64,000 bases of DNA, taken from positions 49,850,001 to 49,914,000 of the forward strand of contig OZ076409.1 in NCBI GenBank assembly GCA_964187785.1, written 5' to 3'. This DNA comes from Amphiscolops sp. MND2022. Its lineage: Eukaryota. Shown piece after piece: positions 9,251 to 62,076 of the stretch. The position numbers were made by a program, and so were the translations under genes. The stretch's first letter is position 1; each line of letters opens with the position of its first letter. The notes under the pieces were generated by a model that did no database searches, was not told where the DNA came from, and saw nothing but the letters and a program-made list of their open reading frames with translations.

Positions 9251-10241
9251 AAATCAATAAAGCAAGAACAAATTCTGAAACTAGCGGTGAAACAGGAAAG
9301 GCGATGAAGTGTACTATTACGATTTACCAAGGTTCAACGCCCCTTGCAATGATCTGGTGGACTGATCACCCACATTATTTACGCTAAAGGAGCACCTACC
9401 CGTTCAAAAAGAGTCCCAAACTTTCAGATTCGCATTTATTCATCTACACATACTCATAAGACGCCTGGAGTCTGAAAAGAAAACCCACTAAAAGGGCCAA
9501 TTTACGCTTTTTTATCCGCCTACTCCTATTATCCACCTGATCATGAAGCTTTCACTCGGGATACCGCCTTTGTCAAAAACAGAAACCACACAAAGTCGCA
9601 AGAAATGACACAGGAATGAATCAAAAATATACTCGAAACTGTCAATGAAAAGTTTTCCACACTCATAGTGTTTTCACACTGCCCCCTCCCAATTGAAAAA
9701 ATCTGCAAAACAAATAATCGCTACCACGAAGCTTTGTTCTTGGTTCATTCAATCTCGCTGCAAGCGCTAACAATAATTTGAGCTGAGATTCCCTTTTCTG
9801 CTCGCATTTGGCATCGGCGAAAGCAATGTTTACTTAGTGTACGAAGCCGCAATCCTTTCCGATCTACAAGACTAATCAACCGAGCGAATGAGTACGCTGC
9901 AACGTTTCAATCATTCCGGTTACTCCACTCCAGCCCACTTCTACTTTCAACTTTTCAAATGCGCACGAAGGGATGACGTAGCTATCCTCACCTCACCGAC
10001 ATACTATTGACTCTCAACCGACGCGGAAATTTGACTGCACGAATACTATATCTTCCTCTCGCTTGCCAAGGCAACACGAGCCAGAACAGCTGTTACAGTT
10101 TAAAAATCGACAAGCAGTTCAAATGTAAAGGGTATAACTACATCAGTCGAACCAATTCAGTTAACGCTGCCGACATACCAACACCACTCTGAAACGTCCA
10201 CTGCTCTCTCCCCCGCACCTTCCTGTTTTCTTTCAAGAGGG

Positions 10242-11134
10242 ATACGCGGAATAATCATTTTTATTTTCCATCATACCCAATTCCGGTGTTTGAGGTAGGT
10301 GCGTTGAATACGTTAAACCATGTCCCAAAGGTGTTTGTAATTTTATATTACGCCGAATTGTTTAGTCCATGATTTGTCATTTACTTAATGTTGGTGATGC
10401 AGCATCATCCTTTAGTCTTATGTAATATTTTCAACGTTGGTGATATAACATCATCATACTCTCACACCAATGCAATTATTTCGCATATAGTTTCCATAGG
10501 TAAAATTAAATAAATTCATTTAACCATAGTAACGTACCATCACTGCACTCATACCATTAAACGCAATTGCGCTACTAAACACAAGGTGCTAATTAGCACC
10601 AATAAAATGGCGCAACAGGATTGGCCAATGAGGTTACGTGACCAACAGCAGCAAACTCAACAGAGGTGCCATCGCGCAGCCATTGCGCTTTACTTTCCTA
10701 AAACGTTGAGCTACCAACTACATCAATTCTATACCAACTTTCATTTCAATACTAACCTAAAATTCTTCCTTCGAACAACTCTCATAAACTTAAAGACTCC
10801 CATATTTTCTTTATGGTTAACACGAGATCTCAATTAGCAAGGAATAATCCAATAGACATGAGTGGAATGGATAGACATAGCGACGCTGAGGGTGAAGGCA
10901 TTTTGCCCGAGATCTTCACGAGAGATCAAATAATTTAGTTCGATAATGGCGACTTGTTGAATTGCCGGAATGACACTGATCGAGATGTAGTAAACCAATG
11001 TTTCTCTGAAATGAACAAAGAGATCAGCGATTTGACAAACCTAGTATTAGCCTTAACAGAGAAGATATCCTCTAGCAGTAGAGAAGGGAAAGATTTAAAC
11101 ACTGTCTCATTTGGACACGCGACACGTTCCGACA
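10242..11134 (+). repeat. Right LTR of element A (5' start apparently lost)
   Basis: Direct repeat of 5733-6617, ends in CA, preceded by a short purine run caagaggga. Confidence 0.7.
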
Positions 11135-13158: not shown

Positions 13159-16100
13159 TACCATACGCATCTGTTGCATTTACCGGAACATATCTTGGAG
13201 AAGATCCTATTTTACCTGTGCAGTGAAGAACCAACTAACAGATTCAATCAAGATGTACTATCTTTTGCCGGAACATGCGTTTACTTACAGCAGCTTGTTT
13301 ATCACAGCACTATACCGGATTACATGGAAATGGGGTTAAACACAAAGGGCGCTTTAGAACTTGTACAATTCAACAATTTCCTGCAAAAAGTTAATTGGAA
13401 AATTACCAAATTCAGACTCTTAATCATGGCAGGTCACTTATGTTGGGTATCATTTTTCGCTCAATGTGAGGGTCATTTCAGACATATCTTCCAACTTTCA
13501 TCTCTCCAAGAATTTATTCTGGATTTCTCTGAATGCTGCTGTGAGCGGAAACACATCTCAAAACAAAAAAACGTCTTCAGAAATGTTTGAAAATGCCAGT
13601 TTTTCGTTTTTTTTTCTCGTACAGCATTGTACCCATTTGTTTTGTTCAAGGAATTTCGAATCTTGAAGAGAGCGAAAGCGCTGAATTAATTTTTCTCACA
13701 AGCACTCCGAATGTCACTTCGTTTCATATTTCGATATCCTGACCCATGTTGAACCTCAGTCCTTATATGCCTGTCGTAGCTAGATCGTAACATGATTGTA
13801 TCAATCATACACCTTTTGCTGCGATTAATAATACAGATCGTCCTGCAAAATGCATGTTTCCTCTGATTTCTCGTTCATTAAATAACGTAACGTGGCAAAC
13901 ATATTGCGTAATATTTACTGATTTTACTATTCTCTGCGCTTCTTATTTCTACAAAAGCGTTTCCAGTAATTTCGGGCATAGCATTGATTGATTTATATTT
14001 ATATTCAACTCTTTTCAATGTTTTTTATACGACGCCTTTTCCTTTACAGGAAAAAAGCCCGACTACTACAGTGACTAGTTTTTTTTTCGTCAGACAACAG
14101 AATGTATGCGTAGTGGACACTTTTTACAGAACTACTAAACTACTAGACCGGCTACCATAAACGCATCCATGTTTGTCCAAAGGGTTCCCCCTTTCATTTA
14201 CTGCATTTTTAACGTACGATACAAAACCGGACGACACTGTAGGGTCCCCCTTTGAATTTTTTTCGGCACTGTGCAACTATTTTTTCGAAATTTTTTTTGT
14301 CTCCAAAGTGTCTCGGCTTCAAGTTTTTCTATATTTTGCAGCAAACTAAAGTTTCAAAAGCCCAAAAGGTCTCCCTTTTTACGTTTTTGGGAACTATGAG
14401 ACTGTTTCAAACTTCTCATTTTTAGTTTTTTTTCGAAAATTTTCAAATTTTTTAATGTCTCCAAAGTGTCCCTCCTTCAAAGTTTGTGATATTTTGCAAC
14501 ATACTGGCTTTTCAAAAAGCTCAAAGGGTCCCCCTCTTTACAATTTTAAAAACTTTGCGCTTTTTGAGCCTTAGATATAGCGCCGACTTGAGACGTTCCC
14601 TTTTTGTTATTGGTTATAAGGGTTAGAAAATTTTTGAAGGAGCTATACTTCACTAGTGGATTTTTATTTTGGGGAGTTCCTCTTCTTGGAGTTTTGTCTT
14701 TTTTGCAGATATATTTGACGTACGTTTTAATTGCTAGTGGTCAAATTTAGCTAAGTTTATCGATTGCGTCAACGGTGTCAGCTTCACGAGTGCAACATCG
14801 TGAATCAATCAGCTTCTTTGAATCAATCATTATTTTAAATGATTCTCCAATAACAAATGCATTTTTTTATCGTTTGAAAATTTTCCAACAGAAGTGGTCA
14901 TTTGAAGCAAATGCCTTGAAATTCCAACAAGAGATGTGTTTTTAAAGTTTACGAACGCCCAGCTCTTTATTATGGATTTTTCTCAGTTGATTTTAGTAAC
15001 ATCTTACGCGCTTATCCTCATCTCAAATCTTTCACGGTTGTTACATTCCCACGTAACGATATTATGAAGGATGTTAAGATGAAGATTAATCATAAAATTT
15101 TCGCCAACAGCTTCAACCAATATCCAAGCATGGATCGATACATATTGAAGGATTTGGGGAGCCCGCATACCTGGGGAGAGTCAAATCGTTTCATGGTGAC
15201 ACTGAATCGATCATTTAAACCTCCATTTCCTAACATTAAACATGTGTCCTTCAACTTTATGACGTATTATCTTTGGAACCAAATGAATTGTCTGAAATTT
15301 CTTACGTCTGTGCGACTCTCGGATCTTAAGATTGGAAAACGGTACGTATTTAATGACTTGATCTAACACTAAAAGTAAACCATTTGACAACTTTATCTGG
15401 AATGATGATGAACTTACCGATTTAAGAATCGAATTTTACTGATTCGACAATATTGCCAAAAACTACAAAAAAACGACTTCTACAAAATATCATCTCGCAT
15501 AAAATCACTGAACACAATTCACAATATTTCCACAAAATTTGTCTGATTTTCTTTCAGCGTGTTTTGAAAACTTTCAGCATATTTGAAAGGTCAGTTTCCT
15601 TCATTTGAAACATGAGAAGAAGAAGGTGGCATTCTTTTGGCATTCATCGACAGCTAAAGTACCAAAACTTGAAATGGAATCTCTTCAATAAAATTCTTTT
15701 AAAACTGTGCTTCTTTATGGAAACTTGTATGGCATTTTAGTGCTAGAGACCTGATTTTGAACAATATGCATTCCGGGACACCACTGATGAGCGTTCGCCA
15801 TTTGGTTATTTCCAATTCCTTTAATTACGGAACCCAGGCAAGTTTGGTGTCAGTTATTTTTCCGAACTTGCAGTCCTACGAAACGGTTTTCCGCAGAAGA
15901 GTAGGATTCGAAGAAATTGTGGAAACGTGTAGACAGCCTATGTGGAATTTTCGCCACCTTTCTACTGTCATGATATTTATCCGGGAATGCGACTTCTCTG
16001 AACACTTGGAGTCATTGAAATCTTTGTTTTGTCTCAAAAACTTGTGCATTGAGTTTTGGCACATGTCGTGGAGAGATTATAGGAATGTGGCTAAACTTTT

Positions 16101-16470
16101 CAATCCGAAGGCACTTGTTCAACCAACCTTTAATCTCGAGCTCTTTCGATTGGAATGCCAGTATTCTGATCTTGATTCACCTAAAAAAGAAACTCAGTTT
16201 CTAGCTGAAGTTTCATCTTTGGACCCGTTTGTGGAAGTTGCATCTTTGTTTTCGAACATTTTGTTGATTGGTTCGTTGCAAGTGTGCGTCATGTTCAGCT
16301 ACAGTGATAAGAAGGAAGTTTACCCTTTTATGGAGATTGCAGTGATGGATCACCCCAAATTGAATTATGTTCGTTATGGAAAGCATGTGTTAAAATACCC
16401 TGAAAGCAATCACAGTTATTTGAAGAAGTTAAGATATTGTCGTCCACGATTACACCTGACTGAGTTTTAA
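13159..16470 (+). CDS. F-box / leucine-rich-repeat-like host gene or pseudogene (multi-exon, partly degraded)
   Basis: LLHLPEHILEKILFYL..DVLSFAGTC..L is an F-box-like motif. Downstream ORFs 15064-15366 and 15757-16470 have LRR-like units (FPNIKHVSF, FPNLQSY, LKSLFCLKNLCI). Candidate acceptors at about 13158, 15557 and 15740; full exon structure not resolved. Confidence 0.55.
14024..14608 (+). mobile_element. HINE copy 3, within the F-box/LRR locus
   Basis: 5' gacgccttttcctttacaggaaaaaagcccgacta; internal aagggtcccc/ggcactgtgc subrepeats; 3' ccttagatatagcgccgacttgagacgttcc..gtt. Confidence 0.6.
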
Positions 16471-18518: not shown

Positions 18519-19282
18519 CCCTTGTACCATTAAAACCAATTTTCGACACCACCGTATGACACGGAGCCGCGATGTAGGCAGTGCTGCAGAGCGAAAATGG
18601 CTGTCAAAAAGTACAAACAATAAGGCCCGATAGCGCAGAGGTGAAATGTTGGACTGTCGAATTTTTTCCAGGTTAGCATCTCAATTTTTGCAACGTTTTG
18701 TGTAAACGTCTAACGTTCTGGCCGGTAGTCATTGGTGCATCATCGGTTACCACTGCAAACGCTGCAGATGCCACCTCGGTGTTCTACCGGTGGGACTTGG
18801 GTGGATCATCGGCAATCACCACCGGACTGCGATTTAATGCCAAACCGGGTAGCTGCATGCTGGAAAAATAATTGGCTCAACGTTCATCGAACACTTCTAC
18901 AACAGAGTTAAGGCTGGTTTTAAATCAGCTCCCTGTTCAAAGCCCAAATTGCGCAGTGTTTCTAGCATTGTGGCGTTCTCAGATTGTTGCGTACTCAGTT
19001 GAAAGTGTTGAGGAGTGATTACAAAGTATGTATTCGAATTGTAATATTCCAAGATAGTAGACGCCTACCTCAGGCCTCAGCTCAACGACTCTATCAACTA
19101 CTGAATAGTAACAATGTCTAGAAATTGATCACATATTAGAAGTAATTACTACTTTTGTGGAGATGTCTGGTTGCCCCCAATGTCCTCTAAACCACAGTAG
19201 TTTTCAAAGACAAAAACAATTCTAAAACTTTTGAAAAAAGTTTGAAAAATATAAACGGAGGGACCCTTTGAAAGAACGTTTT

Positions 19283-21366
19283 TGTGTTGACCCTGAGATG
19301 GGTGCAACTCGTTCAACGTAGTTGGCCTTGATGTCGAGGCTTGATTTTCAGGTTCGTAGAGATCTACTATAGGATTTTCAGATCTAGGCGGGTGGCCTGA
19401 CAATGAGTCTATTTTTGAAGATAGATTCTCAATCATCTTCAGGATTTCCCTTTGCCCAGTTTTGGCATCTTTTATCCTTCTACCAACTGATTTTTCGATT
19501 TTCTCGGAGATTTCGGAGAAATCACGATCAGAGATACTGGGTACATTTTCAGTCCTTTGGCGAGCTGCCTCAGGTTCACCTAGTGAGCTGGATACTTAAT
19601 CCCTTCGGGCTTTCCTTTTAGAGGATCTTTCGGGCATTTTGGATTTCAAGTTTACAGGTTCAAACTATTCGACAAGGAATGAAGAAAGGTTGAGATTTTT
19701 AATCTTCAATTGAGTTTTGAAACAAGAGAAACAAAGTTGCTTTACAGTGAGCGGTTATTGAATTTTCAGAATTTATTAAAATTATTTTTCAACTGCAATT
19801 ATTTAACTTTTCCAAGTATATATACCTTTCACCCACGTGAAGCGGGGAAAAATCCGCACCACTTTCACGTTTTATTCAGCCCGGCGTCCTTCCAAGGCGG
19901 AGAAACCGGAAGTTCAGTTCCGCTTTGTCGAACTCAGGCTTTCAGTTTGTTCATGCTTCCCGAGGAAAGCACGCGTCCACTTCCCGCCTGAGTTGCGACT
20001 CCGCTTCCCTTCGCCTCCAATTCCCGCCTTTTCAGGACGCCGAAGCTGAAATCAGCAACAAAATGAGCTGATTTAAATATTACTCCAGATAATAGTTATT
20101 TCAACGAAACTGCACTTAGGCTCGTAAAACCACTCGTGGGGGCATGAAAACACTGATTAGGTATGAAAGGACAAAGCTCGGTCTCAGGTTGAGGTCCGAG
20201 ACGATTAGGGCAAAATAGCTGATTTCCCAAAAATAGCAACGACTAACAATTTCGTGATTTAAATCAACTTGGGGTTGCTATTCATGTCATTTCTCAATCC
20301 AGTTTAAATGGGGATTAATTTTAAAAGGGTAGTACAAACCATTAATAGTGATTAAATAACTCAAGCCAAAGATTTAATTCCCAGGCCGGGGTCTAGGCCG
20401 TGGTTTAATGCATTCAAAGTTAAGTATTGCTACATGAATAAATGGTCACAAATTGCATGTAATTAACCACTAATTCTTACGATACTGCGTATTTGGATTG
20501 TGGTTTCACTGATGAGACGATGGATAATCGGGAGCACCGATATTTTCACTTTTAGGATGGATTTGGACAAACCTGATTTCAGGCCGGGTCCTTGGCTACA
20601 GTTTATTACATTTAATAATCAATCTTGGTGTACATGGGTGAATAGCATTGCACAACAATCTTGACCGTTATGCAATCGTTTTTCATTGTGGGTGTTTAGT
20701 TATCGGGTAAAAATCATCAACCAAATTAACAATTTCCATTTCTACAATGGATTTTATAAATTTACATTTCAGGCCACTTCCTGGGCCGCGGTACATTACT
20801 TCCAGTTAAAATCAACACAATTTGTAGATTACTCAGGGAATTACATGTAAATCATCACATTAGTTGTCTTTGTTTGCATCAATACTTTTACATGTAATCA
20901 TTTAAAAGCGCGTTCACTGCTGCATAGTGTTAAATAGCTCATTCCAATTTCAGGCCGCTTGCCAGGCCGCCGCTTTACTGCGCAAATCTGAGGCCGGTCG
21001 CCAGGCCGCGGTTCCGCCTTCAATCTTTCAAGCCGTTTGCTTAGCGGTGTGATTCTATTATTATTAATTATATAGCACTGTATTATTATTATCATTAACT
21101 GCACTAATAGCTCCGTACTTGTTGGTACACTGTGTGTGTATGTATATATTCTTGTATGAAATTATGTAATTATTAGTATTTATACATATATAAATATAAA
21201 TTTAGCTCCGAGCTGATTTAAAGTAATAATTTATAATAGTAATAAATTAGTTGTATATTAGTTATTTCACTTGCCTTTTCTTCTGTTTCGGTCTAATTCC
21301 AATTTCCTTCTTCGTAGACCGCGCTTATTGTGTGACAGTTTTCACAGCTTAGCTGGGGCTGTGACA
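19283..21366 (-). repeat. 3' LTR of element B (2084 bp)
   Basis: Near-identical to 32907-35084 apart from scattered substitutions and a ~90-bp segment present only in the other LTR (about 33692-33783). Confidence 0.95.
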
Positions 21367-21889
21367 GTCCTCGGCTTCGATGCGCTGTCTCATCTGGAAG
21401 GAGGAATTGGGATATCGACCGGATTGGAGTGTTAAATAAAGTGGGTAGGTCGTCGCGCATTGAGTCGTAGGATCTCCATGAAGAATCCGAGTCCCAGTCG
21501 CTTCCTGACCAGTACCCTTCTGAGCTGCTGTATGAGCTCATGGGACTGCTGACGGTAGAGTTAGGGCTGTATCGGTTCGCAGGATTGAACTGCCGGATTG
21601 GGCTCACGAATTCGTCATCTGGGATAACCGGATTATCTGTAGTGAATCTTCGTATCACTCCTTGTTCGTTTTCAACGTTAATTGCATTCACAAGTGGTTG
21701 TTCGTGAACAAGGACTACATGTATATCTTCCGCCTTGATTATTTCGTAAGTAAAAGTATACTGTGCTGTGTTGATGAGATTGTAATTAGGCGGCGGTGTA
21801 CCGGGCCTTTGTCCTAGCTGCGCTGGTTGATCTCGGTCGAGAAGAAAAACATCTTCGTTTGTTTGATCGTTGAAGTGGGAATTATCCAT
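21293..21889 (-). CDS. Extra sense ORF of element B (198 aa, unknown function) running into the 3' LTR
   Basis: ATG-initiated uninterrupted ORF, Ser/Asp-rich; the LTR start TGTCACAGCC falls within ..RGLSQP..; an ORF in the same position exists in element D. Confidence 0.6.
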   Translation of the reverse strand: MDNSHFNDQTNEDVFLLDRDQPAQLGQRPGTPPPNYNLINTAQYTFTYEIIKAEDIHVVLVHEQPLVNAINVENEQGVIRRFTTDNPVIPDDEFVSPIRQFNPANRYSPNSTVSSPMSSYSSSEGYWSGSDWDSDSSWRSYDSMRDDLPTLFNTPIRSISQFLLPDETAHRSRGLSQPQLSCENCHTISAVYEEGNWN

Positions 21890-22120
21890 TTTATTGAAGT
21901 ACCGAACTGAGTGTCAATTGATTTGGAAAACAACTGATTGATCCGCGTCTTGAAATTTGTTCACACCATTTGTGTTAAGTTTGTTGAAATATTCAGCTGG
22001 CAGACTGAACAACTCTCCTTATATAGTAGATAACTTCTAGTATTAATATTTCCATTGTTTTACGCCACATCTTCATTGTGTTATAGTTTTTTTAAAATAT
22101 TTTTCAGAAAGTTTTGAGAC

Positions 22121-25100
22121 ATGAGCTCCACTGAAGAAGATAATGCCTTACTTTGTCACAGTCGGGAGGTTGGTTTGAAGGAAAGTGAGGCTGAGGTGGA
22201 ATCAGTCTTCGAGTCAGTTATTAGTGGAGAGGAGAGAGTGCGTGGTTGTGATGACAGGGATGGTAGTGATGAGGCAAGTGTTACTGGCAGTCGCGATGAA
22301 ACTGGAGAGGCTGTTGCAGGCATAGTGACCGAGACGGCAGGACGAGGATTTGGCGAAAAAGATGTTACCGAGGATGAGATTGTTGAGACTGATGGTGAGA
22401 GCTGCCCTGAGAGTGAGTCCTACCACTCTGCCACAAGCGACAATCGTCATGACATGGATTACTTGGCGAACAAGAAATGTAAGCTTTCCTAGAAATTAAA
22501 TGGGTGGCCGGCCCTTTCTAGTTTTGTATGAACGCGTTCTTTTTACATCTACTTTCTACAGTGACTGATGATGAGATTGACGCGGATTATTGTCCCAGCG
22601 CCGGTTCAAAATCGCAGCGCAAGCAGAAGAAGCAGTGTCGATCCAGTCGGATGCTTTCGACGAACAGTGTCCGGTCAGCTAAGCGTGTGCGATTGGCTGA
22701 TGTCGTTGCGGGGGTCATTCCGAGGCCTCCTACCTCAATGGACAGTTGTGGCGAGGAGTATGATCCACCGACTGTTTCGAAGACTCTCGAAAGTAAGTAT
22801 TCCTTCCTCCTTCTTGTCGTTTGTAATGTACTTGTTAGGAGTCGTTTATTTGCGAGTTTTGATGCTCCTTTTGAGATATCTCTATGTCGTTGTTTTAGTC
22901 GCTGAACTGGGGCACGGACCAGGAATTGGATCATCTACAGAGGGTGATGTTTTTGTATGTGAGGCTGCTTTGGAGACGCCTGCTCAGGAAAGTGACATTG
23001 TCTCTTTGCTTCCTGATGAGTCCTCTCGACACACCCGAACTCAACATGGTCGGACAGCGGTAGGGTTGGAGCCCTCTGTCATCCATAACGAGTGGGAGAA
23101 TGGTATGTTTCCCTATTCGTTTTTCTTGCTTCTGTTTGATCTATCCTCTATATGATCTTTCGAATGCGTAGTTTGTCTAGCTGTTCGTTTCCCTTTCCTT
23201 CTGCCATTGCGTTTTTGATATATTATTATATTTGTTATAAGCTGGTCTGCAGTCTGTCCCCACTGGTTCTCCTGTTGTGATGTCGGCCTCGCAGTGTGTC
23301 ATTTTGGCTCGAAGTGCTGCCCGGTCTGAGCGGACGGAGACGCAGAAAGAGACTAAAAATTTGGCTAAACCTGAGTATTTCCTCAAGTTTCTTCTTCGTT
23401 TTTGTGTGTTATTTGTTGTTTCTTCGGTTGTTGGGCGTTTAGTTGTAGTTGTTTGCCGTATGTTTTGATGGTGTACTTTCCGGTTTGTCTGTTTCGTCGT
23501 TAGCTTGTTGGTTGATTGAAGGTGTTTTATTTTAAAATTCGAAGAGCTGTCTCGTTTGTTGAAACTGAAAGGGATTGACGCCAGTGATCCTGGGCGTGTT
23601 GTGGATCCTGTCGAGCTTAGAAAGGAGCGGCTTCTGGCTCGGGACGAGGAACGTGCAAAGAAACAGACCGAGAGGCATGTTCTGACTAAGGCCATGAATA
23701 ATCACCCGATACCCAGGCTGTTTGTTAGTCGTCGGATTGATAAGAGCCCCAATGGATTTAATTGCTCGGTGTGCCGTAAAGATGTGTCTTTCCTGTCCCG
23801 AGGGCCCCGAGGCATCTGGAGGCACTTTAAGTGCAAGGGCCATTTCGCAAAGGATCGGCGTTACCGATTTGATCACGAAGACTTCATCTATACTGAGAAG
23901 TTCGATGCCATCGCTGTCAGTGAAGTTTCGTTGGAATTGCGAGCTGAAATCGAGAAAACGCCACCAGTTACTCTGGGGAAAATGAACAACTTTGTCGAGG
24001 ACGAGGTGAATGCATTGGTTGGCGTCCCGTCCAATGTGCCTCCTACGACTCTTGTGGGTTGTTTATTTGAGCTATTGAGAAGTGGTGGCTCGCAGATGTT
24101 TCTCCGTCGTCTGTGGAGCCAGTTCCGTACGACCCTTCCAGTTGACAACCCGTATGCCTGTGTTACCTGGAGTAAGACTGAAACCTTGGTGGTGATAGTC
24201 CAGATCCTTTACCCACGCGTACTTCGTCGTGTGAAGTCATGGCTTGGCGACAGTCCTCTTAGCTTGTCAGTGCAATCGTCATTCTTTGGGGTGCGATGTA
24301 CTGTCCGATGCTGTCCCGATGACTCTGTGCGGGAAGTGTGTCTTGTGGATGAAGACGTTGGAGTTGTCTCCTGTGAAGCCGAGATTCGTTGCCTGTCCTG
24401 CGTGTTGTCTTTGGTGTCTACTCGTCATGGTCCTGTTGCCATTCAAAACTGCCCGCCTGTGTTATTTAACGCTTACATGGATTGGTGCCGTTCTATGGGT
24501 CGACCTGTACCTGTTGTTGCTACCATCTTTGATGTTGATATTCTGCGTCGTTTGGTTCGTGATGCCAGTTTGGTTTGTGTTGGATCCGTGGATCCATTTG
24601 CTGTCATAGAGTATCTGGGGCAACGTTGGAAAAAGTTTGCTCCCCAGGCTTGGCTTCTGAACTTGCCGCAATTCCGTCTCTGCTTGGAGTCGGGGGTAGT
24701 TCCTCCGGAAAATTTATGCGTTGTATTGCAAGAGCTCCTCGACAATTGGTCTGATGTGAAGATTTGTGTGTCGAACGATATCCTATTGATGAAGAAGAAT
24801 GTCAATGTCGTGGATCTGGTTTCCCTCTTGTGTTCAGACCGTTTGGGTCTGCCTCGACTGGCTTTATTGCATGTCCTTTTGCTGTGTTTTCGATCAAACT
24901 GCAAATGGTTATTTGAATCGGATGTTGCAGATTACGCTTGCAGGAGTTTTACTGATTTTTGCAATTTCTATTGGAGCCTGTTGAGCAAGGTGAAAAAGAT
25001 AAGTCAGCTACCTTCCATCGACAATTGGTCCGACTATATAGACAAACCACTGAACAGTTGGGCGAATGTGACTGCCTCCGAATGTCTTCAGGGGGAACCC

Positions 25101-25960
25101 AGTATCATGAAGGCGCTGCGTGGTTTTGACGAGAGTCCTCGACGGGCTTTCCTTCGTGAATGTCAAGGATATTTATTGGAGTTCCTGAAAGTTCTTGGCT
25201 CGTGTTCTTATGCCAAGTCTCGTATTGCGCGATCACTCAGTTGTCTTAGTGTCGACATGTTATTGGGTGGTGACGCTGAGTATGTTGTGGATTTGTTCCA
25301 AGACCTTGTCCTCTGCCTCCAGGAATCGGGATGTCTGGGCGATGTGGAATGGGATGCTGCCATGAACGAGTTTAAATCCCTGGTTATAGATTTACGTCAG
25401 CGGGGTGTTGATTGTTCGCAGATCTCTGATGTCTTCAAATATCTGGAGGGACTTGAGAGTTTCCAGTGTCGGGGCTTTGTAAAGCAAGTTGTGCGGCTGG
25501 TCCGAGTCCTGCTCCTAAGTCATTGCCTCCTGTTGATATTTCGACTAGCGGGACAAGTTTGCCTCCTTCTGTGATCCGGTCAGTTCTCCGAAGTGTACAG
25601 TCATTTGTACTACATCCTAAATTCATGTCTTCCGATTTGCTGACTGTAGAATGTCTGGAGGAGTTGAAAATGAATCTGCCGAATGGTCCTCAGTTCTTGG
25701 GTTGTGGCGCCTTCAATCCATGGGTTGGTGTGAGTCGGCATCCCATTGAAGAGATCTGCAACAGTCTGTTTGAGTGTTACAACGCCTATTATTCTGGGCA
25801 ATTGAATGACTGGCGGACTCGGACGTCGTCTAGTGCTGTAGTGCCTTCGAGTTCTACTGTTGGTCGTGCCTCTGTGGAGTGTAGTCAGCCTGGGTCGTGT
25901 TCGTCATCTCAGACGGGAAAAGGAGGTAAACGTGCTGTGCGTCAAGGGAAATCCTGTTGA
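22121..25960 (+). CDS. Antisense 5-exon gene in element B encoding a ~1100-aa hAT-transposase-like protein with BED-like zinc finger (this copy probably damaged)
   Basis: Exons 22121-22478, 22562-22792, 22899-23102, 23242-23370 and 23536-25960 join in frame through four phase-1 introns. Three are canonical GT-AG; the fourth reads CTGAGT..AA. CSVC..RHFKCKGH finger; frameshift near 25505; AATAAA at 26082. Confidence 0.75.
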
Positions 25961-26290
25961 AAACTATTTGAAACTAAACTTTGATAGATGACTTTGATTT
26001 ATTTTCTTTGTTGTTTCTTTTATTGTGTAGCCATTGTTTTGATATAAGGTTCCGTCTGTCGGTTCCGTTGTTAGAGAAAGGAATAAAATTCGATCAATTA
26101 TGCTCTGGTAGTATGGAGCAAAAGAAAAAGGTTGAGGCAGCTCGGTGGTCCACTGGGTTATTCAATTTAGTATTTAGCCTCTGTATTGTTTTCATCCGAG
26201 TCGTAGAGTAAAGAGTAAAAAGTTTTGAGAGAGAGGGAGCCAGTACGAATTGAGGATATTTGATATTGAGTCACAGAATGGCCGTCCAGG

Positions 26291-29200
26291 TTAGCGCCTG
26301 GGGCCTTTTCGGTTTTCTGATCTCGGGCCACCGTCGGGGCCGAGGTCCGCTAGGATCTGTATTTCTGGGCCGTCGTCTAGGCCTTCGTTCTGATTTACGG
26401 AATTTTCAGAGTTTATCTCTAAGGCGTTGTAATATGCAAAATCTGGTTTCCAATTTGAAGCTGGGTTTCGTCGGAGATTGTAATGGGATTTTCGGGGGGA
26501 TTTAGGAACGGGTGTATGATCTTCGGGTTCATCTTCTGTATCTAGGACTGGGTCATTTGTCTGGCTTCCTGGGTGGTTACTATTGCTTTCAGGCCTGTGC
26601 ATTGGGTCGGGGTTCAAAGGGCTGGGGTACGTAAGGGCATCGTTTGTTTCCGGTGCCTGGGGTATTACTTCGGGTTCGGGTGACTGGTTATTTTCGGGGT
26701 GGGTAGGGGGTTCTTGATAAAGTTCTTGCCAAGCCATTGCGAAGAGGTCATCGTGCAGTATGATTACCTCTGTGTCCTGCTGGAAATCTTTAGGCGAAAC
26801 TGAGATGTCAGGCAGTTTGTGGCTGCTTGCGAATGGCCATAGTCTGATTCTGTGCAGGATCTTGGTGAGGTTCGTTGGAGTTTTCGGATTAAATAATTAT
26901 TATTGGGTAGGGCTTTGACAACGATATATGGTCCCGTCCAAAGGTATTCCCGAAACGGCAGTTTTGTCGCTTGGCTATGCGCCTTTGGATGCAATGCATA
27001 GCAGTAGTCGTTTACTACCGGTGGATTTGCTGATGCCTTTCTGTCGTAATAGCGTTTATGACGTACATAGGCCTGCATCAGTGCTTGCTGACTTTGGTTG
27101 AGGATTTGTCGTGTTTGCTGCAACACTTCTTCGGCTATTTCGTGATTGATTGGGGCGGGGGCTGTGGTTTGCGTCCATATTTCAGGTCGAGTACGTTGTA
27201 GGGCACTCTTCTGTGAAACACCCTGCTAGGTTCGCTGCCTAGGGATGTGTGGTATGAGGTAATGTAGTTCAATACTGCCATCGGTAGGAATTGATGCCAC
27301 ATAGTGCGTCGTTCTTCTGTCATGATTTTGAGACTTTCTTTCAGGGAGGCGTGAGTCCTCTCTAGGATGCCGATCGTCTGGGCATGTTTTGTGGTGGCGT
27401 GTTTCAATTGGATTCCATATGCTGTTGTGGTTTGATGCATTGCTTCTGATATAAACTGGGATCCTTTGTCGGTTATTATTGTTGTGGGTAAGTAGCAATG
27501 CCTGGTTATGATGTCTGTGAGGACTCGTGTGACTGTCCTGGTATCGATTCTGGTGACACTGTATGCGAATAGATATCTGGAAAACACGTCCATTGCAGTA
27601 ATGACTGCGGTATAGCCTCCTGATGGGTCATCGAAAGGGACTATGTCCATCTGGAGTGCATCTTCGGGTCCCATTGCTACTTTTGACATGTCAATCAGCG
27701 GTGGTGTGATGGTATTATTGGGTGTCCTCTTTGTCTGGGCACATTCCATACAGTCTGCTATGTGGTTAGCTATTCGGGCGGCAAGTCCTGGGAAGTAGTA
27801 CTTCTCGCGGCATTGTTGGATAGTTTTGGCTATTCTCGGGTGTTTTCCATCTTTGCCATGGTGGTATTGTATGAATTCGTCGACTAGTTGTTGGGGGAGC
27901 AGCACTTGTAAATATTTGACTTTTCCAGTGTCCCCAAAATATTGCCTATATAGGAGTCCATCTTTGATGATGATCCTATCTTCTTGGGCTAGGTATTTCG
28001 TTGCTCTGGGATCGTCATTGAGGAGTTGGGTGTCATACGGTTCCTTCAATATTTTGAGCTTGAGGTTTCTGAGGACAGGGTCCTGGTCCTGGTGTGGTCT
28101 TAGGCTGCGAGGAAGATTGGTTTCGTTGTGTAACTGACGCCTTTAATCCTGTTCCGGGTCTTGGATGTTGTTTCAAACCAGGAGCAGATTCTCCGTTTGC
28201 GAGCTTGGTTCGGTTGTATCGATTTGAGAATCAGTTGGCTGTTCTTGGGGGTTATAGATTTTCTTTCGGGCACGTTGTTTGCGTTCCCAGATATCTTCTT
28301 CAGTTTCGGAATCGTCTTCCGGCAAAAAGTAGAATTGATCCTCCTCATGTATATCTGAGGATTGGATGTTCACTTGGATGGGCGTGGTCTGGATATCTTC
28401 TCTGATTTGGAGAAGGACTTTTTCTTTTGGATTGATGTCCAATCGGGAGAGGAAGTCGGCCGCCGTGTTCATCCTTCCTGGCACAAGGGCAATTTTGAAG
28501 TGAAATTGAAGCACAAAATCACAGGCGTTCCACAGGGAGGGTGGGATCATTTTGGTTTGAAAAAACCTTGTGACTGATTTATTGTCTATTAGAACGATGG
28601 TTGGTTTGGAAGAACCCCACCAGATGTGGCTATACTCCATGAAGGCAAAATAAATAGCTAAAAACTCCTTGGCATAAATTGACATTTTCAATTGTGACGG
28701 GGAGAAAGTTTTAGAGCCAAATGCCACGGGGGCATAAGTTTTCTTGGTGGAGGTGAGTTTCTGTTCTGGGTTTTCTTCAGTCATCAAGGCAAATCCAGCG
28801 TTCTTGAACATCGCATCAGTCATTAGGACATACTGCCGGTTTGGCAGCGGCTGTTTGAGCCAGAGGTCACATGCGTTGTCTAACGACTTGTTGATGGCTT
28901 CAAAGTTTGTTATGAGTTCTTGATCTATTTTGGCAGATTTGTCGGATTTGATGAGTTCGTGGAAAGGGGCTATCTTCTCGGATAATCGGGGAATGTAATT
29001 TCTGTAATAGTTCACAAATCCGATGTATCGTTGAAGTCCTTTCTTCGTTCGAGGGAACTTGAGTGTTTGCAAGTTTTTCTGGATCTTGTGGCTCTGGGGT
29101 GCCACTCCTGATGGGGAGATCGTTCGCCCAAGGAATTCGACTTCCTTGGCGCCGAACTGACATTTCGCCATTGTGAGCCGGAGTCCTGCGGCACGGATGC

Positions 29201-31810
29201 ATTGGAAAACCTCTCAAATTGTTTTTCAACTCTTCGGGAGTGTTTGTGGCGATTCCAATGTCGTCCACGTATTGGGCGCATTTGTCCGCCTTTATGGCCT
29301 TGTCCAGGTATTCCCTCATGAAACTTGAGAAGGACGATAGTGAGCGGCTCAGTTCTTGGGCCAGTCTCAGGTACGCAAACGTTCTGCTGGCAAAGTTGAA
29401 GGCTAGGAGCTGGACGGACTTCTGGTCTGCCATCTGCAGTTAGTGTGCTGACCGGATGGTTATTGTTAATATAGTCATCGGAGATCAAGGTATTGATCTT
29501 TCGGAGGTCCACTAGGAGGCGCAGTCGTCCATTCAGTTTGCGCTGGGCGAAGATCGGGCTGGCGTACTTGCTGAACGGGAGGGTTGTTATGATCCCGAAG
29601 TAATGCATTAATGCTAGTTCCACTGTCAAGTCCTCTTTCAAGTTAATAGGGCAGGGCAGGCTTTGCGAGTAGACTGGGTCGTCCGTTTTCGGCGTGAGTT
29701 TGATTTTGAAGTCATGGTTGATTCCGATGTCCAATCGGTGCCTCGCGAAAATGTCATTGAACTCTATCAGTATTTCTTGAATGTCTTTTTGGTCATTTTC
29801 TGTTAGTTGGGAATCATCCCATTTTAAGTTTTTGAGGAATGCTTCTCGGTCTTCTGCGTTGTTGTTGGGGTCCAGCTTCTGGATCTCTTCCAGTTCTTTG
29901 ATTTCCCTCAGTATCCTGCTCTGAATTGGCGTGTGGGTATTTGGGTCTCCAGGATTATCTGGTGTGGGGAACCAAAAGTTTTGACTGTGGGAAGGTTGGT
30001 CAGAAGTTTTCAGGAGTTCGTTGATGTATATTATTGCATCTTCTGAATCGTCCTCCGTGAGTACTTTTAGTGCTGCTGTGTTGAGTGGTTTGAGTTCTTT
30101 GGCTTCTTCGAGTGACATGATTTTGAACTCAGCAACAGTTGTATTCTTTTTTATGGTGTAGGGCGTGGGGGTGGTGTTGGTTACTCTGACGTCAGTTTTC
30201 CGGTTGGAGGCTGTGGATATCGAACTGGCTACGACCAAAGGGACACCGCTGCAATGGTTGGTGGCTGGGTTGATGACACCGGTTGTGTCGATGGTAGATG
30301 TTATGTCCGTGTAGGCGGTGATTGTCTTGGTTGTCTCAGGAGGAAAGGTGAGTGGACTCTTGACTTGTACTTTGTATAGCTTTCTGTTGCGGGTAAATTC
30401 ATCGGTTTCAATCGAGTACGTTAGATGGGGGAAGTGGAGTAGGCCTTGGCTTACATCCAGAATGGCGCTGTTGTTTTTCAGGAATGTGAGGCCGAGTCTT
30501 GGGCCTGTGAGTCGTTTTGCGACGATGAACGTTTCTTTGAAATTCGAGTCCCCGATTTCGAATTGGAGGATTATGGACTTGGTGGGGGTTTCAATGTCGC
30601 CGTTTGCGACTTGGAGTTTGAACGGGGGTGGTTCCAGTTCTTTGACTATGTCCTTGGGGACATCTGGAAGAATTTGTTGTAATCGGTTTCGGAGATGCAG
30701 TTAACCAGTGCTCCGGAGTCGATGAGGGCGTCCAGGGTCAAGTCCTGGAAGTCCATTGGGGCAAATAGCATCTTCTTTTTCTTCTTAAGGGTCACCGCTG
30801 AGAAGATTGGGATGCATTCTTCTTTGGTGATGGGGTCTCTTGTGAGGTATTCTGCAATCTGAGCCATGGGGTAGGACTGGGGTTCGTCCTGTGTCGGTGT
30901 GTCGTTTACAGCACCTGAGGGGGATTCAGATTGCATGTTGGTTTCGGCAGCCGTAATGGGTCGGGGGTCCTCGACTTTATTTGCGGGCTGACTTCTTGGG
31001 GAGGAGGGTGAGGGCGGCGCCTCGTTGTAGGAGAGGGGCTCTAGGAGTAGAGACCTTTTTATTCTCCTTGTTTGCGGTGTGGAGATTGTTATCTCCGTGT
31101 TGGTTGTAGTTTGGGTCAGGTCCACGGCTTCAGTCGTGGTCCTGCTTGTGAGTTTTTGCGTTTGGTGACAGTCTGGTGCCACGTCCATTGTTGGGGCTCG
31201 TACGATTCCGGCTCTGATGGGGTTGGCTGTTTGGTGTTTTGGTGGTGATTGTGGAGCCGTGGTTTGGGATCCATGGTTTTTGAGTATGGACTTTGGCCTG
31301 TTAGTCGATTCGTCGACTAGTATTTCCGTCACTCGTTCTGTGTCTTGGTCGTACTCTGGGACCGGTTGGATGGTTTTCGGTCTGTGGCGTGGTTCTGCTG
31401 ATATATTCATCCCGGTTGTCTTGATCAATTCCTCAAATGGGGTGCACTGCCGTTGTTTAAAGGTTAAAGTCGTTTTGTCGTATATTTTGGGGTTGTGATA
31501 GGGGTCGCAGTTGAAGTCGGGATCATGTATATAGGTTTCAGGGGCAGTAGTTTCGGGTAGTGGTCGTTTTGGAGTGTCGTAGTCGTTCGGGTTGTTAAAG
31601 TACCATTGTGGGTAGTCTTTTTTGGTCATTTTTTGACGGTTGTACTTTTGGAGCCTGTGGATTTGCCATCGTCGCTGCCAGTCGAGAGATGGTTGTTCAC
31701 AGCGCACGGTGATTTCTTCATGGTCGTAAGAGTTTGGGGGTTCCGATGTTGTGAAGTGTCGTGTGTGGACCTTCTTCCCAAACTGAAGATGTGGCGAACT
31801 TAGTTTTTTG
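26291..31810 (-). pseudogene. pol: pol of element B (PR, RT, RNase H, integrase with GPY/F), frameshifted
   Basis: LIDSGA protease; YASPIF..LRLLVDLRKIN and AQYVDD RT; LMTDA..YAKEFLA..NTAADFLSR RNase H; HH..CMEC, LQMDIV, TDKGSQF, LERTH integrase; WTGPYIV. Confidence 0.93.
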
Positions 31811-33261
31811 ACTGATTTGGTTCCTGGGGTTGGTTTTGCAGGCGGCATGTAGCCCATTTGGCTAGTTGCTTGGTTCTGGTACGGCGGCTGGGTCGCTTGG
31901 AAATTGTTTTTGGCATACTGACCTTGTGATTGTGGAGGTATCATGATGTTATTTGGGGACGTGGTTTTGGGGGTTTTCCACCACTGTGGTCGATTTGCCC
32001 AGTTGGCGCCTGAGTAACATTCTTGGGTTGTGTGGCTTTTCTTGCCACAGGTTTCGCATGGATCGACAATTTTGTTGGGACTCTGTTGCCTCTATTGCGA
32101 GCTTCGCGGGCTACTTTCCTGCAGTTTTTGATAACATGGCCGGATTGCCCACATCCGTACCATGGTCCTGACGCTTTGGGAGGATTCAGGGCTTGCTGTG
32201 GGTCTAGTGCATCGATTTGGTGCACTCCTGTTATGTTGGTCTCGTTGGGGGCCAACAGTCCGTTTAACTCTATCTCTCTCTCCAAGTGTTGGACCATCAT
32301 TTCGTAGGATTCAGTTTCTAACCTTGCTTGGTTCAGGACTCGTTTGAGGTGGGTTGGCATTTTGGCGTAGAAGGAGGTCTCGATAAACTTGGGGGCGTCG
32401 TCACCGTATGCTTCTTGAGCCAGTTTTTGATACTGCTCCAAGAAGTCTTGAAAAGTTTGTTGGGATGGGTCAAAATGGAGTTGTTCCCCTTTGCAGCGGG
32501 CTGTCGCGATAGATTGGGGCGGACATATCGTCGTCGGAAGGTCGCGATGATGTCGTCTATGCTGGCACGGTTTGTGTCAGTCATGTTGCGGTAGGTCTGC
32601 AGAGCATCATCCTTGAGTAGGGAGTGGAAATAGTGGATCTGCTCCTCTTCTGAGATGTTGGGATACACTTTGAGGCTGGTCATGAAGAGTCTTCAAAGTG
32701 CTCAAACTTGTCGTTCTTTCCGTTGAATGTGGGCATGGTTGTTGACAATGCCTTGGGCAATCTGGGGAGCCCTATGTTTTGTTGAGTGACATTCCTGAGT
32801 GATTCTAGCAGCTTGTCCACTATGTGATCCGAGTATTTCTGATTTGGAGGCGGTAGGCTCGATGATCGGGGCGGTGCTTCTGTTTGGGGGAACACTCCTG
32901 TCACCATGTGTTGACCCTGAGATGGGTGCAACTCGTTCAACGTAGTTGGCCTTGATGTCGAGGCTTGATTTTCAGGTTCGTAGAGATCTACTATAGGATT
33001 TTCAGATCTAGGCGGGTGGCCGGACAATGAGTCTATTTTTGAAGATAGATTCTCAATCATCTTCAGGATTTCCCTTTGCCCAGTTTCGGCATCTTTTATC
33101 CTTCTACCAACTGATTTTTCGATTTTCTCGGAGATTTCGGAGAAATCACGATCAGAGATACTGGGTACATTTTCAGTCCTTTGGCTAGCTGCTTCAGGTT
33201 CACCTAGTGAGCTGGATACTGAATCCCTTCGGGCTTTCCTTTCAGAGGATCTTTCGGGCAT
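31800..33261 (-). pseudogene. gag: gag of element B, initiating inside the 5' LTR
   Basis: ATG at 33261 within the LTR; MPTFNGKNDKFEHFED capsid-like motif; zinc-knuckle remnants (xYGCGQSGHVIKNC); several frameshifts. Confidence 0.85.
32893..32906 (-). promoter_or_regulatory. Primer binding site TGGTGACAGGAGTG (tRNA-Leu-like)
   Basis: Directly follows the LTR terminal CA; 13 of 14 positions match the familiar tRNA-Leu PBS TGGTGTCAGGAGTG. Confidence 0.75.
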
Positions 33262-35084
33262 TTTGGATTTCAAGTTTACAGGTTCAAACTATTCGACAAG
33301 GAATGAAGAAAGGTTGAGATTTTTAATCTTCAATTGAGTTTTGTAACAAGAGAAACAAAGTTGCTTTACAGTGAGCGGTTATTGAATTTTCAGAATTTAT
33401 CAAAATTATTTTTCAACTGCAAATATTTAACTTTTCCAAGTATATATACTTTTCACCCACGTGAAGCGGGGAAAAATCCGCACCACTTTCACGTTTTATT
33501 CAGCCCGGCGTCCTTCCAAGGCGGAGAAACCGGAAGTTCAGTTCCGCTTTGTCGAACTCAGGCTCTCAGTTTGTTCATGCTTCCCGAGGAAAGCACGCGT
33601 CCACTTCCTGCCTGAGTTGCGACTCCGCTTCCCTTCGCCTCCAATTCCCGCCTTTTCAGGACGCCGAAGCTGAAATCAGCAACAAAATGAGCGATGATTC
33701 AACAATTCGCTCTTAAAAAGCAGGAAAAGTGAAATTAAAGCAACGACAATTATGGAAATTAGAAATTCCCCAAAACGATCTAACTGATTTAAATATTTCT
33801 CCAGATAATAGTTTTTTCAACGAAACTGCACTTAGGCTCGTAAAACCACTCGTGGGGGCATGAAAACACTGATTAGGTATGAAAGGACAAAGCTCGGTCT
33901 CAGGTTGAGGTCCGAGACGATTAGGGCAAAATAACTGATTTCCCAAAAATAGCAACGACTAACAATTTGTGATTTAAATCAACGTGGGATTGCGATTCAG
34001 GTCATTTCTCAATCCTGTTTAAATGGGGATTAATTTTTAAAGGGTAGTACAAATCATTAATAGTGATTAAATAACTCAAGCCAAAGATTCAATTCCCAGG
34101 TCGGGGTCTAGGCCGTGGTTTAATGCATTCAAAGATAAGTATTGCTACATGAATAAATGGTCACAAATTGCATGTAATCAACCACTAATTCTTACGATAC
34201 TGCGTATTTGGATTGTGGTTTCACTGATGAGACGATGGATAATCGGGAGCACCGATATTTTCACTTTTAGGATGGATTTGGACAAACCTGATTTCAGGCC
34301 GGGTCCTGGGCTACAGTTTATTACATTTAATAATCAATCTTGGTTTACATGGGTGAATAGCATTGCACAACACTCTTGACCGTTATTCAATCGTTTTTCA
34401 TTGTGGGTGTTTAGTTATCGGGTAAAAATCATCAACCAAATTAACAATTTCCATTTCTACAATGGATTTTATAAATTTACATTTCAGGCCACTTCCTGGG
34501 CCGCGGTACATTACTTCCAGTTAAAATCAACACAATTCGTACATTACTCAGGGAATTACATGTAAATCATCACATTAGTTGTCTTTGTTTGCATCACCAC
34601 TTTTACATGTAATCATTTAATAGCGAGTTCACTGCTGCATAGTGTTAAATAGCTCATTCCAATTTCAGGCCGCTTGCCAGGCCGCCGCTTCACTGCGCAA
34701 ATCTGAGGCCGGTCGCCAGGCCGCGGTTCCGCCTTCAATCTTTCAAGCCGTTTGCTTAGCGGTGTGATTCTATTATTATTAATTATATAGCACTGTATTA
34801 TTATTATTATTATTAACTGCACTAATAGCTCCGTACTTGTTGGTACATTGTGTGTGTATGTATATATTCTTGCATGAAATTATGTAATTATTAGTATTTA
34901 TACATTTATAAATATAATTTTAGCTCCAAGCTGATTTAAAGTAATAATTTATAAAAGTAATAAATTAGTTGTATATTAGTTTCTTCACTTGCCTTTTCTT
35001 CTGTTTCGGTCTAATTCCAATTTCCTTCTTCGTAGACCGCGCTTCTTGTGTGACAGTTTTCACAGCTTAGCTGGGGCTGTGACA
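32907..35084 (-). repeat. 5' LTR of element B (2178 bp)
   Basis: TGTCACAGCC..GGTCAACACA on the minus strand, followed by the PBS. Confidence 0.95.
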
Positions 35085-37349
35085 GTTTTTAACTTAAAGA
35101 ACGTTAAAAATATCCAAACAACAAAAGGGGAGTTCAGAAAACCCAAAGGGTTTCTGCAACTTCCTAGAAACCTAAAACAATCAGAGCGTGAATATTTGGC
35201 CTGTTTGAAATGTTTTTAGCTCTCATACTAAAAGTCTAATAAAAGTGTTTTTCGATCAGAGACCTCTAGACAAGATTTGAGTGCCTCTCAAGAACAAGAT
35301 TTGAGTACTTCTTCTTCTGCGCGCAGCGCCCCTTTGTAGAATAGCCGTATAAGGAGCAAGTTGGAAGAATGTGGGATGAGATGTGTATTAGTAAATCGTA
35401 ACGGAATGGTGATAACTGTGAAAAATAAACTTTTTCACGACCTGTTTTGACAGGTACTTGATAAATGCTAATGTAGGCTAATTTACTGTGGACTATCAAT
35501 GTTACGTCTCTACCACAGAGATGCTGCCTCAGTCGGAAATAAATAAGACTTCGAAGTATTTCATTGACTGCAACAAATCAAGGGACATTTTTGTCGTTAC
35601 GAATTTTCACTTTCCGAGGTTCTAAGTTTTATATCACTATGATTGTACTTCCAATAAAATAACAGTTCTTCGATACGTCGTATCAAAAAATGTGCTTTCA
35701 TCCAAGTGGTAGACTAAGGCTCTAAGTTACGAGCAGTTGTATATTGACAGTGCCTTTCACCTGAAATGCCTGAAATAGAAGAAATGACCAAAATGCTTTG
35801 TCCCAAATGCAGCAAAAGCAAGTTTGATGTTTTTGAATGATGCTTTGATAGTCCGCCGCATGTAGTTTAGAGTTGCCAAATTTTGTCATATTTTTTAAAA
35901 CTCTCACGAAAACTTCCCTACGAGTATTCCTTAATCTGTATGGTTTTTATCAAGCTGCTTGAAAGAAGCATCCTAAATTTGGCGGCAGTTTTGTGCCTTC
36001 AACTTTTTTGCAGGTTTAATTACGAAAAGTTCAATTTTATATGCTACCAGCTTCTGCTTTAAATACTGGAATTTTTTTCATGCTAGAGACCTGCATACAG
36101 AGTCGGTTTTTTCAAAACCTTGAACATTTAGAAAGCTTCCATTGATAATTCTTGTTAAATTACACCGCAGTTTCCACTATTGTAATGAAAATTTTTTACT
36201 TGATTGCCAACACGGTCACTCGTCTCCATTTTTGTTTGCTTAACTACAAAATGTGATCACTTCATCTAAAATGGCACGGTAAGCATGACGCTAGTTAGCA
36301 ATCAATTACGTGATTGAAGTCATTTTGCAATAAAATGGCGGTAACACTGATTGCAACACTTGTAGTTTTCAAGGCCCAAAATTGCCAGTAAATTTAGTAT
36401 GATTCTTCCAAGCAGCTTGACAAAAGTCGAATCCAACACTGAAAATTTTTACGAATAAAACTTTTCGTTAGAGTAAGAAAAAATATGAGTGCAAGCAAAA
36501 ATAACTAATTCAAATGCTGCTTTTTTCCTATTTTCCAAGAGATTGGCTTCAAACTTGTTTACATGTTGCTTTACTATCCCACAAATTTTTGTACAAACAG
36601 CCTTTGCATGAATGTTCATCCACTACTGCATGAAATTTGAAGTTTGGTTGTGGTTGTTTTCGGACAAGTATCTTACGAGTAGGTTGTAATCATCAATAAT
36701 TTTTTTTCTGAAAAAAAGACATTTCACCAGTTTAACACAGTTTGTTGCCATTTTCTGATTGAAATTTGTTTGGCAAAGTTTGACTTTTTTTCCACGCAAC
36801 ATAGATGGGAATTTTTCCAAACTTGTGCCTAATGGGAGGCTGTTTTCACACCATATTTTGCGAAATCCAGAAGGTGTGATCATAGTTTGTAAGAGTTTGG
36901 CAGTTAACACGAGATACGGTGCTTCTATGAATGCTCGGCATTTTGGAAAATTGAGATAAAGCGACTTTTTGCTAAATAAATTCAAAAAACTTGCTTCGTT
37001 CAGAACAGATTTGAGGCAAAAAAAATCGTGAGAAAATTTTTCAATTAGCTGTCGATTGATATCTTATTTAAGTTTCTAAATACTTTAGAGTCTGAGATTT
37101 TTAATATTATCTGCCTTGGAATTTGCGTAAGAGGTTGCTTTCAAATTTATTTAGATATATATTTATCAGAAGTGAAAGACTTTTCCAACCATTAGTTTAC
37201 CTTTTTTGAACTTCTTTTTGATTCCGTCATTGTTGCAGGACCTAGAGGAGTCCGTTTACTTTCGTTCAATTGTTTGATAGACGGAAGGTTCAAAGAAAAA
37301 ACTCGCAATTTTAGACAATCAATATTGTCAGCAAAGCGCTTGATTTATA

Positions 37350-62005: not shown

Positions 62006-62076
62006 AACTTAGAGACTCCAAGATCCAGTTCTTGGGCAATCTTCTGTTGTCTACCAACGAGTCGTCTTCTTCTAGT

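Follow-up and report, generated by a model that had tools for sequence, protein, structure and literature searches.

A probable nuclease-dead hAT transposase derivative borne antisense by a gypsy-type LTR retrotransposon, with candidate target repeats in its LTRs

Extra open reading frames (ORFs) lying antisense between the integrase and the 3′ long terminal repeat (LTR) are known from plant retrotransposons such as Retand (TRP28), maize Grande (gene23) and RIRE2, where they occur in most copies; a nuclear or regulatory role has been proposed for them, and TRP28 corresponds to Pfam family PF04195, which is confined to flowering plants (accessible portions of PMC7264820 and PMC11963269). Their origin is termed unknown, without similarity to other transposable elements (TEs), in the accessible text of PMC7264820. 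Here we analyze a gene of the same position and orientation from Amphiscolops sp. MND2022 (Eukaryota). It lies on the + strand of a 64,000-nucleotide stretch (contig OZ076409.1 of assembly GCA_964187785.1, positions 49,850,001 to 49,914,000; hereafter the window, whose coordinates are used throughout), antisense to element B, a gypsy-type LTR retrotransposon that occupies 19283-35084 on the − strand. A sequence-only reading of the window had reported a ~1100-amino acid gene on the strand opposite to this element, between integrase and 3′ LTR, and had taken it for a captured hAT DNA transposase. The location was confirmed. The predicted exons of the gene, which we call the cargo, total ~1115 codons, and the peptides quoted in that reading are all on the + strand in the order given, spread over a frame of 684 codons (23520-25574) and a tail in a shifted frame (25457-25960). 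No match to PF04195 was found in the cargo with Pfam. Unlike the plant ORFs, the cargo has an apparently traceable origin and candidate target sites.

TE-encoded regulators that derive from a transposase and have lost its catalytic residues, as Spm TnpA, remain in their own DNA-transposon family or pass to the host, according to the accessible text of bioRxiv 10.64898/2026.08.24.746577; in its main text neither "LTR" nor "retrotransposon" occurs as a whole word. In the case of VANC of the VANDAL elements, related families differ in a TE-encoded protein and, in step with it, in the repeats that it targets, but the host is a DNA transposon and the protein acts on DNA methylation (accessible text of PMC5735166), of which no mutational sign was seen in the genome studied here. 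VANC has a MAIN-like origin (accessible text of PMC13547354). What the cargo elements have in common with VANC and TnpA is the presence of family-specific repeated motifs in their non-coding parts (20 of 28 elements). Domesticated hAT genes (FAM200, GTF2IRD2, ZBED5, ZMYM1-like) have kept transposase bodies for other uses, and fission yeast CENP-B binds LTRs; these are host genes rather than cargo of a replicating retroelement, and CENP-B, which is of the pogo type, silences. Foamy virus Tas and HTLV Tax/HBZ, which regulate their own LTRs, are likewise encoded in the interval from the structural genes to the 3′ LTR, but they are not known to have a transposase origin or folds related to that of the cargo. 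HBZ is named in the accessible text of PMC11963269. The ORF3s of bdelloid LTR elements are env-like, esterase or exonuclease genes, and the word "transposase" is absent from the accessible text of PMC5408684. The sequence-only reading knew of no described gypsy lineage with such a cargo; in agreement with this, no LTR element with a hAT cargo was found in the open-access literature, a search that left aside subscription journals, Repbase and bioRxiv supplements.

Element B has the organization of a gypsy retrotransposon. Its LTRs end in TG..CA and are 97-98% identical to each other, the target duplication is 5 bp long, and the pol domains follow the gypsy order reverse transcriptase (RT), RNase H, integrase, with Pfam matches to rve (E 2e-16), RT_RNaseH (E 2e-13) and Integrase_H2C2 (E 2e-11). 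The gag frame opens ~350 bp within the 5′ LTR, near 33262, and crosses the primer-binding site (PBS; 33262-32893, − strand). The gag-pol region of the window copy is in pieces, spread over several frames. For the cargo, conservation across copies points to five exons, the main one preceded by four phase-1 introns. The GT/AG sites of these introns are conserved in nearly all displayed rows of a 30-copy alignment of the upstream part. Among the more distant copies, identity to the window is 44-56% for introns 2-4 and 60-71% for the exons. Intron 1, at 83% identity in those copies, is an exception. In the most distant group of copies, three additional GT-AG introns interrupt a region that is a single exon in the window copy. 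Because the cargo is antisense to the element, its introns would survive reverse transcription. The cargo has decayed in the window copy, where intron 4 has a non-canonical donor and acceptor and the reading frame shifts near 25.5 kb.

The cargo is present family-wide. Protein searches of the 1.07-Gb assembly that contains the window gave three groups of at least 70, at least 52 and at least 100 matches, and 57 of the first 70 matches listed for the first group were free of stops; an N-terminal query gave 135 further matches, in part overlapping the earlier ones. The context (20 kb) of ten copies per group (n = 30) was then analyzed. These copies were chosen among the top-scoring matches, so that the sample leans to intact ones and may miss free or solo copies. 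In all 30 copies the cargo follows immediately on the 3′ side of a gypsy integrase, in antisense orientation, and 29 of them have within the 20 kb two LTR-like repeats, in most cases 97-99.9% identical to each other. In the three groups pol was 92-95%, 78-82% and 63-64% identical to the window, and the cargo 72-94%, 46-50% and 25-28% (35% in one truncated copy). The pol and cargo trees have three clades in common, here termed near, middle and far (Spearman 0.88 over 465 non-independent pairs). A single element (L033), with a middle-clade pol and a near-clade cargo and LTR motif, departs from this and is a recombinant or nested case. Within the near clade (L031-L050) the pol and cargo types are shuffled (pol 92-95% and cargo 72-94% identical), a sign of frequent recombination among sub-lineages. 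Outside the assembly, 847 representative relatives were retrieved at E <0.001, mostly fragments; because some of them match the genome studied here at only 35-50%, related genomes probably carry the cargo family. Searches of viral and metagenome contigs yielded no relatives.

The sequence-only reading had proposed that the genomic copies be collected and their ratio of nonsynonymous to synonymous rates (dN/dS) estimated. When the 18 of 42 loci that lack a 780-codon frame were dropped, 24 open copies were left. In 75 pairs dN/dS was 0.05-0.27, depending on the dS bin, and dS was saturated in the other 201 of the 276 pairs. The cargo is under purifying selection.

Two further observations concern the distribution of the cargo. 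Some matches lie ~13.6 kb apart (G000:C10:2574483, 2588122 and 2601761; G000:C8:18262160 and 18275772), which suggests head-to-tail arrays of whole elements. The window itself holds, at 56224-57686 (+), a decayed distant cargo homologue (E 4e-7 to 6e-6) that ends just upstream of a BEL/Pao-like element and may belong to a further lineage.

To learn whether a hAT origin can be recognized, we used AlphaFold2 to predict the structure of P0004, a natural sister protein with 75% identity (predicted local distance difference test, pLDDT, 72.8). The model shows three strands, a helix, a strand and a helix, followed by a long helical insertion. With Foldseek the 11 best rows listed were chains of the Hermes transposase (best E 4.9e-4), and VIA-align placed residues 229-731 of the model on Hermes 133-609 (PDB 8EDG, 4D1Q) with a Z of 12.4 and a root-mean-square deviation of 4.8 over 396 residues; ISCth4, Tn5 and RAG followed at Z 6.6-5.8. 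The sole viral match to the model at E <0.001 was a hAT-domain protein. The model is largely helical, which would make the Z borderline if taken alone, but three structure searches converge on one family. The nearest named clusters in the ESM Atlas were FAM200/GTF2IRD2/ZBED5 (score 0.89-0.90), a language-model neighbourhood that we treat as a lead only. Sequence profiles did not link the cargo to hAT. The comparison with Foldseek and Pfam suggested in the sequence-only reading thus succeeded in its first half, with a Hermes-like fold in the predicted model; Pfam, including Dimer_Tnp_hAT and DUF4371, gave no relevant match for the cargo or for 44 distant fragments, apart from DDE_Tnp_4 at E 0.15 in one of 20 members. 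A PDB sequence search with the cargo profile returned nothing significant. A DUF4371 search of the same genome found no match, and its control search was likewise empty. The likeness to Hermes extends to a predicted RNase H-like core that is interrupted by a large helical insertion, to an N-terminal zinc finger, and to short repeated DNA motifs as likely targets, here candidate sites. The cargo differs in its 8-11% identity, in a 300-residue disordered N-terminus, in the absence of conserved catalytic residues and terminal inverted repeats (TIRs), and in being borne by a class I element. On the strength of the predicted model and of column conservation, the cargo is very probably a hAT derivative that has lost its active site.

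The catalytic positions were assigned from secondary structure (the ends of strands) and from motif register with the hAT consensus and the sequence of Hermes, whose residue roles were used. The sequence-only reading had proposed that the Asp-Asp-Glu (DDE) triad and the CxxH motif are gone, with Gln at the first Asp. The columns of 152 non-redundant rows bear this out. The first-Asp column holds Q, R, E and K (30, 26, 19 and 9%) and no D, the second-Asp column is 76% Gly, and no CxxH was detected in columns 352-368. The stretch of the catalytic Glu is a loop in the model; its most acidic column is 72% D/E (position 700), a value that none of columns 684-726 exceeds. The LLDNW peptide of the cargo corresponds to ILDNW in Hermes, and at the position of the active-site Trp, reached by counting back from it, 17 of 20 rows have Phe and none has Trp. 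These data support, as far as the mapping goes, that the DDE, CxxH and active-site Trp positions have no conserved equivalents. Two motif assignments of the sequence-only reading are probably wrong: QRW, read as a hAT motif, is a substitution private to the window copy (W there in 0 of 20 aligned relatives), and LPPSVIRS probably belongs to the counterpart of the last Hermes helix rather than to that of the catalytic-Glu helix.

The CxxC..H..H finger is a conserved feature of the family, its CCHH ligands being retained in 86-97% of rows. The N-terminal part was modelled with confidence (pLDDT 84), and the finger adopts a hairpin-helix in that model. The N-terminal model had no Foldseek match at E <1, and its best VIA Z was 5.1. 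No Pfam or fold match carries the BED name, and the BED family is absent among the listed rows.

Candidate targets of this finger are found in the LTRs. GC-rich direct-repeat pairs occur in the upstream (U3-side) half of the LTRs, with a period of 12 bp in the near and middle clades and of 11 bp in the far clade. In 28 LTRs we counted 61 distinct sites (at least two in 18 LTRs, none in 7), relative to 1-12 for nine other spacing pairs; spacings 7 and 27, both above background (9 and 26 counts), were excluded from that set, and the excess at 27 arises because two pairs sit 39 bp apart. Overlapping 5-mer counts were 66 and 19, compared with ~1 in shuffles (18 LTRs). Such pairs were absent from the three LTRs of cargo-less elements within the window, and the repeat pattern of element B occurs nine times in the 64 kb, each time inside its own LTRs. 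When three well-aligned repeat pairs were compared across five diverged LTRs, 27 of the 30 half-site columns proved invariant, versus 123 of 400 nearby. The repeat pairs are set 360-1000 bp into the LTR, on its promoter side and away from the tips.

The half-sites differ by class, and so do the fingers. GGCCT accompanies the finger RG[PA]RGIWRH in 10 of 10 elements, with 4-8 copies each, GGGAC[AG]ACC accompanies RG[EA]PEIWRH in 3 of 3, ACGTCC accompanies KG[IV]REI in 2 of 2, and ACGGAGC is found in 5 of 6 far elements. Overall, 20 of 28 elements conform to a pairing of four finger-residue classes with four half-site classes, the motif classes having been defined on the same LTRs in which they were counted. 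The near-clade finger residues are almost invariant although the cargoes are 72-74% identical overall. The base-reading residues of Hermes are the eight that precede the first His (accessible text of PMC10368747), and the stretch of the finger that varies by clade here is their counterpart.

Taken with the predicted fold, these data lead us to favour, somewhat above even chances, the view that the cargo is a captured, nuclease-dead hAT derivative that binds the repeat pairs of its own LTRs and promotes transcription of the element. After capture the nuclease site would have decayed, with the zinc finger and the transposase scaffold retained. A spliced protein, with a disordered N-terminus, a putative zinc-binding finger and a Hermes-like body, would be produced from its own antisense transcript and would bind the clade-specific GC-rich pairs in the U3-side part of the LTR, as the Hermes finger binds subterminal repeats. 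Once bound, in whatever oligomeric state, it would most likely increase transcription of the element or keep it from repressive chromatin. That finger and LTR repeat have then co-drifted, giving rise within one genome to several private lock-and-key combinations, the captured transposase having become a sequence-specific LTR regulator, is in our estimate an evenly balanced proposition.

Several points weigh against this activator model. Profile-profile comparison of the cargo with 30 DUF4371-type hATs was not significant (E 0.07-0.6). Exon 1 is acidic in two clades, with a D/E content of 24-28%, but no such exon was found in the third, the far clade. A clear repeated half-site of the own class is missing from one far-clade and seven middle-clade elements, the seven having one match or degenerate pairs only. 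The correspondence between finger and motif could stem from shared descent alone, because there are four related classes and the cargo is physically linked to the 3′ LTR. Purifying selection acts on the entire 500-residue body, a constraint for which a simple activator has no obvious need. Finally, no CpG depletion or hypermutation was seen (33/3467 versus 130/13287, in 27 of 30 pairs; 3 dropped), which, on indirect grounds, makes a VANC-like demethylation role unlikely.

Other explanations were considered. The LTR pairs could be sites for a host transcription factor, with the cargo acting otherwise, by binding element RNA in a Rev-like manner or by blocking a host silencing protein. The eight elements without a clear own-class motif would fit such a role, as would the H-x5-H spacing of the finger, unlike the CCHC finger of Hermes, and an RNA-binding TUT4 entry among the structural rows of the N-terminal model, which is at noise level (Z 4.1). 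We consider it rather unlikely, since the geometry of the pairs stays constant while the half-site changes by clade, a change with which a fixed host factor could hardly keep pace; the near invariance of the finger residues among otherwise diverged near-clade cargoes also argues against it. A role after reverse transcription, in which the protein shares the origin and the LTR target proposed above but acts on cDNA or integration (pairing or protecting LTR ends, nuclear import, or tethering to chromatin through a transpososome-like scaffold), is unlikely too. It would account for the selection on a full Hermes-like body and for the presence of the pairs in both LTRs, and Hermes holds two ends through multimers and fingers (accessible text of PMC10368747); yet the pairs lie on the promoter side rather than at the LTR tips, and the element encodes integrase domains of its own. 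Less probable still is self-restraint, in which the LTR-bound protein would repress the element or limit its copy number. The same sequence evidence would serve this reading as serves activation, and the transposase-derived CENP-B homologues, which are host-encoded rather than element-borne, localise to and silence the Tf2 LTRs of fission yeast (accessible text of PMC4981269), but the family is abundant and young, as judged from its LTR pairs, and the acidic N-terminus of two clades would fit activation better. That the cargo is a recently nested hAT transposon, a neutral passenger or a still active nuclease is very improbable: ordinary hATs are plentiful in the genome (150 Dimer_Tnp_hAT matches) and the region of the third catalytic residue has one column that is 72% acidic, but no TIR pair was found between the cargo flanks (best inverted match 9 bp, E 2.5; an 8-bp duplication was not searched separately), the cargo sits in all 30 copies from clades whose pol is 63-95% identical, it is under purifying selection, neither strand end carries a conserved Asp, and the cargo profile found nothing significant in the frames of 27 ordinary hAT loci of the same genome (best E 0.07). 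The nested insertion, which the sequence-only reading had itself raised, is therefore largely refuted. Six of the ordinary hAT loci (L148-L152, L154) encode transposases with intact catalytic motifs.

The coordinates of element B and its cargo are collected in Table 1. Elsewhere in the window, a decayed gypsy gag-pol at 43958-50957 (+) resembles the far clade, and the cargo profile has no match behind it. A young BEL/Pao-like element (57730-63121; LTRs 99.4% identical) has a 913-codon frame, a DUF5641 domain and a 24-bp tandem array at 61683-62053. An older LTR element at 5733-11127 (LTRs 92% identical) has broken gag/pol-like frames and no cargo match. Frames at 13159-16470 (+) give the impression of F-box/leucine-rich host gene exons, and the frame tested had no Pfam match. 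Near-perfect hairpins with arms of 59 and 41 nt lie at 39178-39310 and 45599-45685.

Table 1. Features of element B and its antisense cargo gene (window coordinates)
Feature	Position	Strand	Remarks
Target-site duplication GTTTT, left	19278..19282	strandless	
3′ LTR	19283..21366	−	2084 bp
Four matching repeat pairs, 3′ LTR	20991-21007, 20952-20968, 20771-20787, 20383-20399	−	span 20383..21007
Cargo exon 1	22121..22478	+	acidic, 28% D/E; predicted splicing
Cargo exon 2	22562..22792	+	basic clusters; predicted splicing
Cargo exon 3	22899..23102	+	predicted splicing
Cargo exon 4	23242..23370	+	donor non-canonical in window copy; predicted splicing
Cargo exon 5	23536..25960	+	~810 codons; acceptor non-canonical and frame shift near 25.5 kb in window copy
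Zinc finger C-x2-C-x16-H-x5-H	23763..23843	+	ligands 86-97% conserved
Hermes-matching region	24132..25640	+	sister-copy counterpart superposes on Hermes 133-609 (RNase H-like core and helical insertion)
First-Asp position, Gln	24273-24275	+	column conservation; mapped by secondary structure and motif register
gag end and pol (protease-like region, RT, RNase H, integrase)	27135..32091	−	several frames in window copy
gag	31941..33262	−	several frames in window copy; weak CCHC knuckle (zf-CCHC E 0.02)
PBS-like sequence	32893..32906	−	begins TGG, immediately past 5′ LTR
5′ LTR	32907..35084	−	2178 bp
Five GGCCT-type repeat pairs, 5′ LTR	34706-34722, 34667-34683, 34486-34502, 34296-34312, 34098-34114	−	12-bp period; span 34098..34722
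Target-site duplication GTTTT, right	35085..35089	strandless	

The cargo is a real, selected and unusual gene, and is neither an active hAT nor a TRP28 ORF. Antisense extra genes are common in the LTR elements of plants, where the accessible text of PMC7264820 calls their origin and function unknown; the cargo family has a traceable, hAT-like origin. Strong selection together with at least four natural finger/motif pairs makes the candidate function directly testable by swaps. If the model is true, a class II enzyme would have been domesticated by a class I element and not by the host, as a cross-class version of TnpA and VANC. The family would then show where an accessory gene of a retroelement came from, and offer a natural series in which to follow the co-divergence of a zinc finger and its site.

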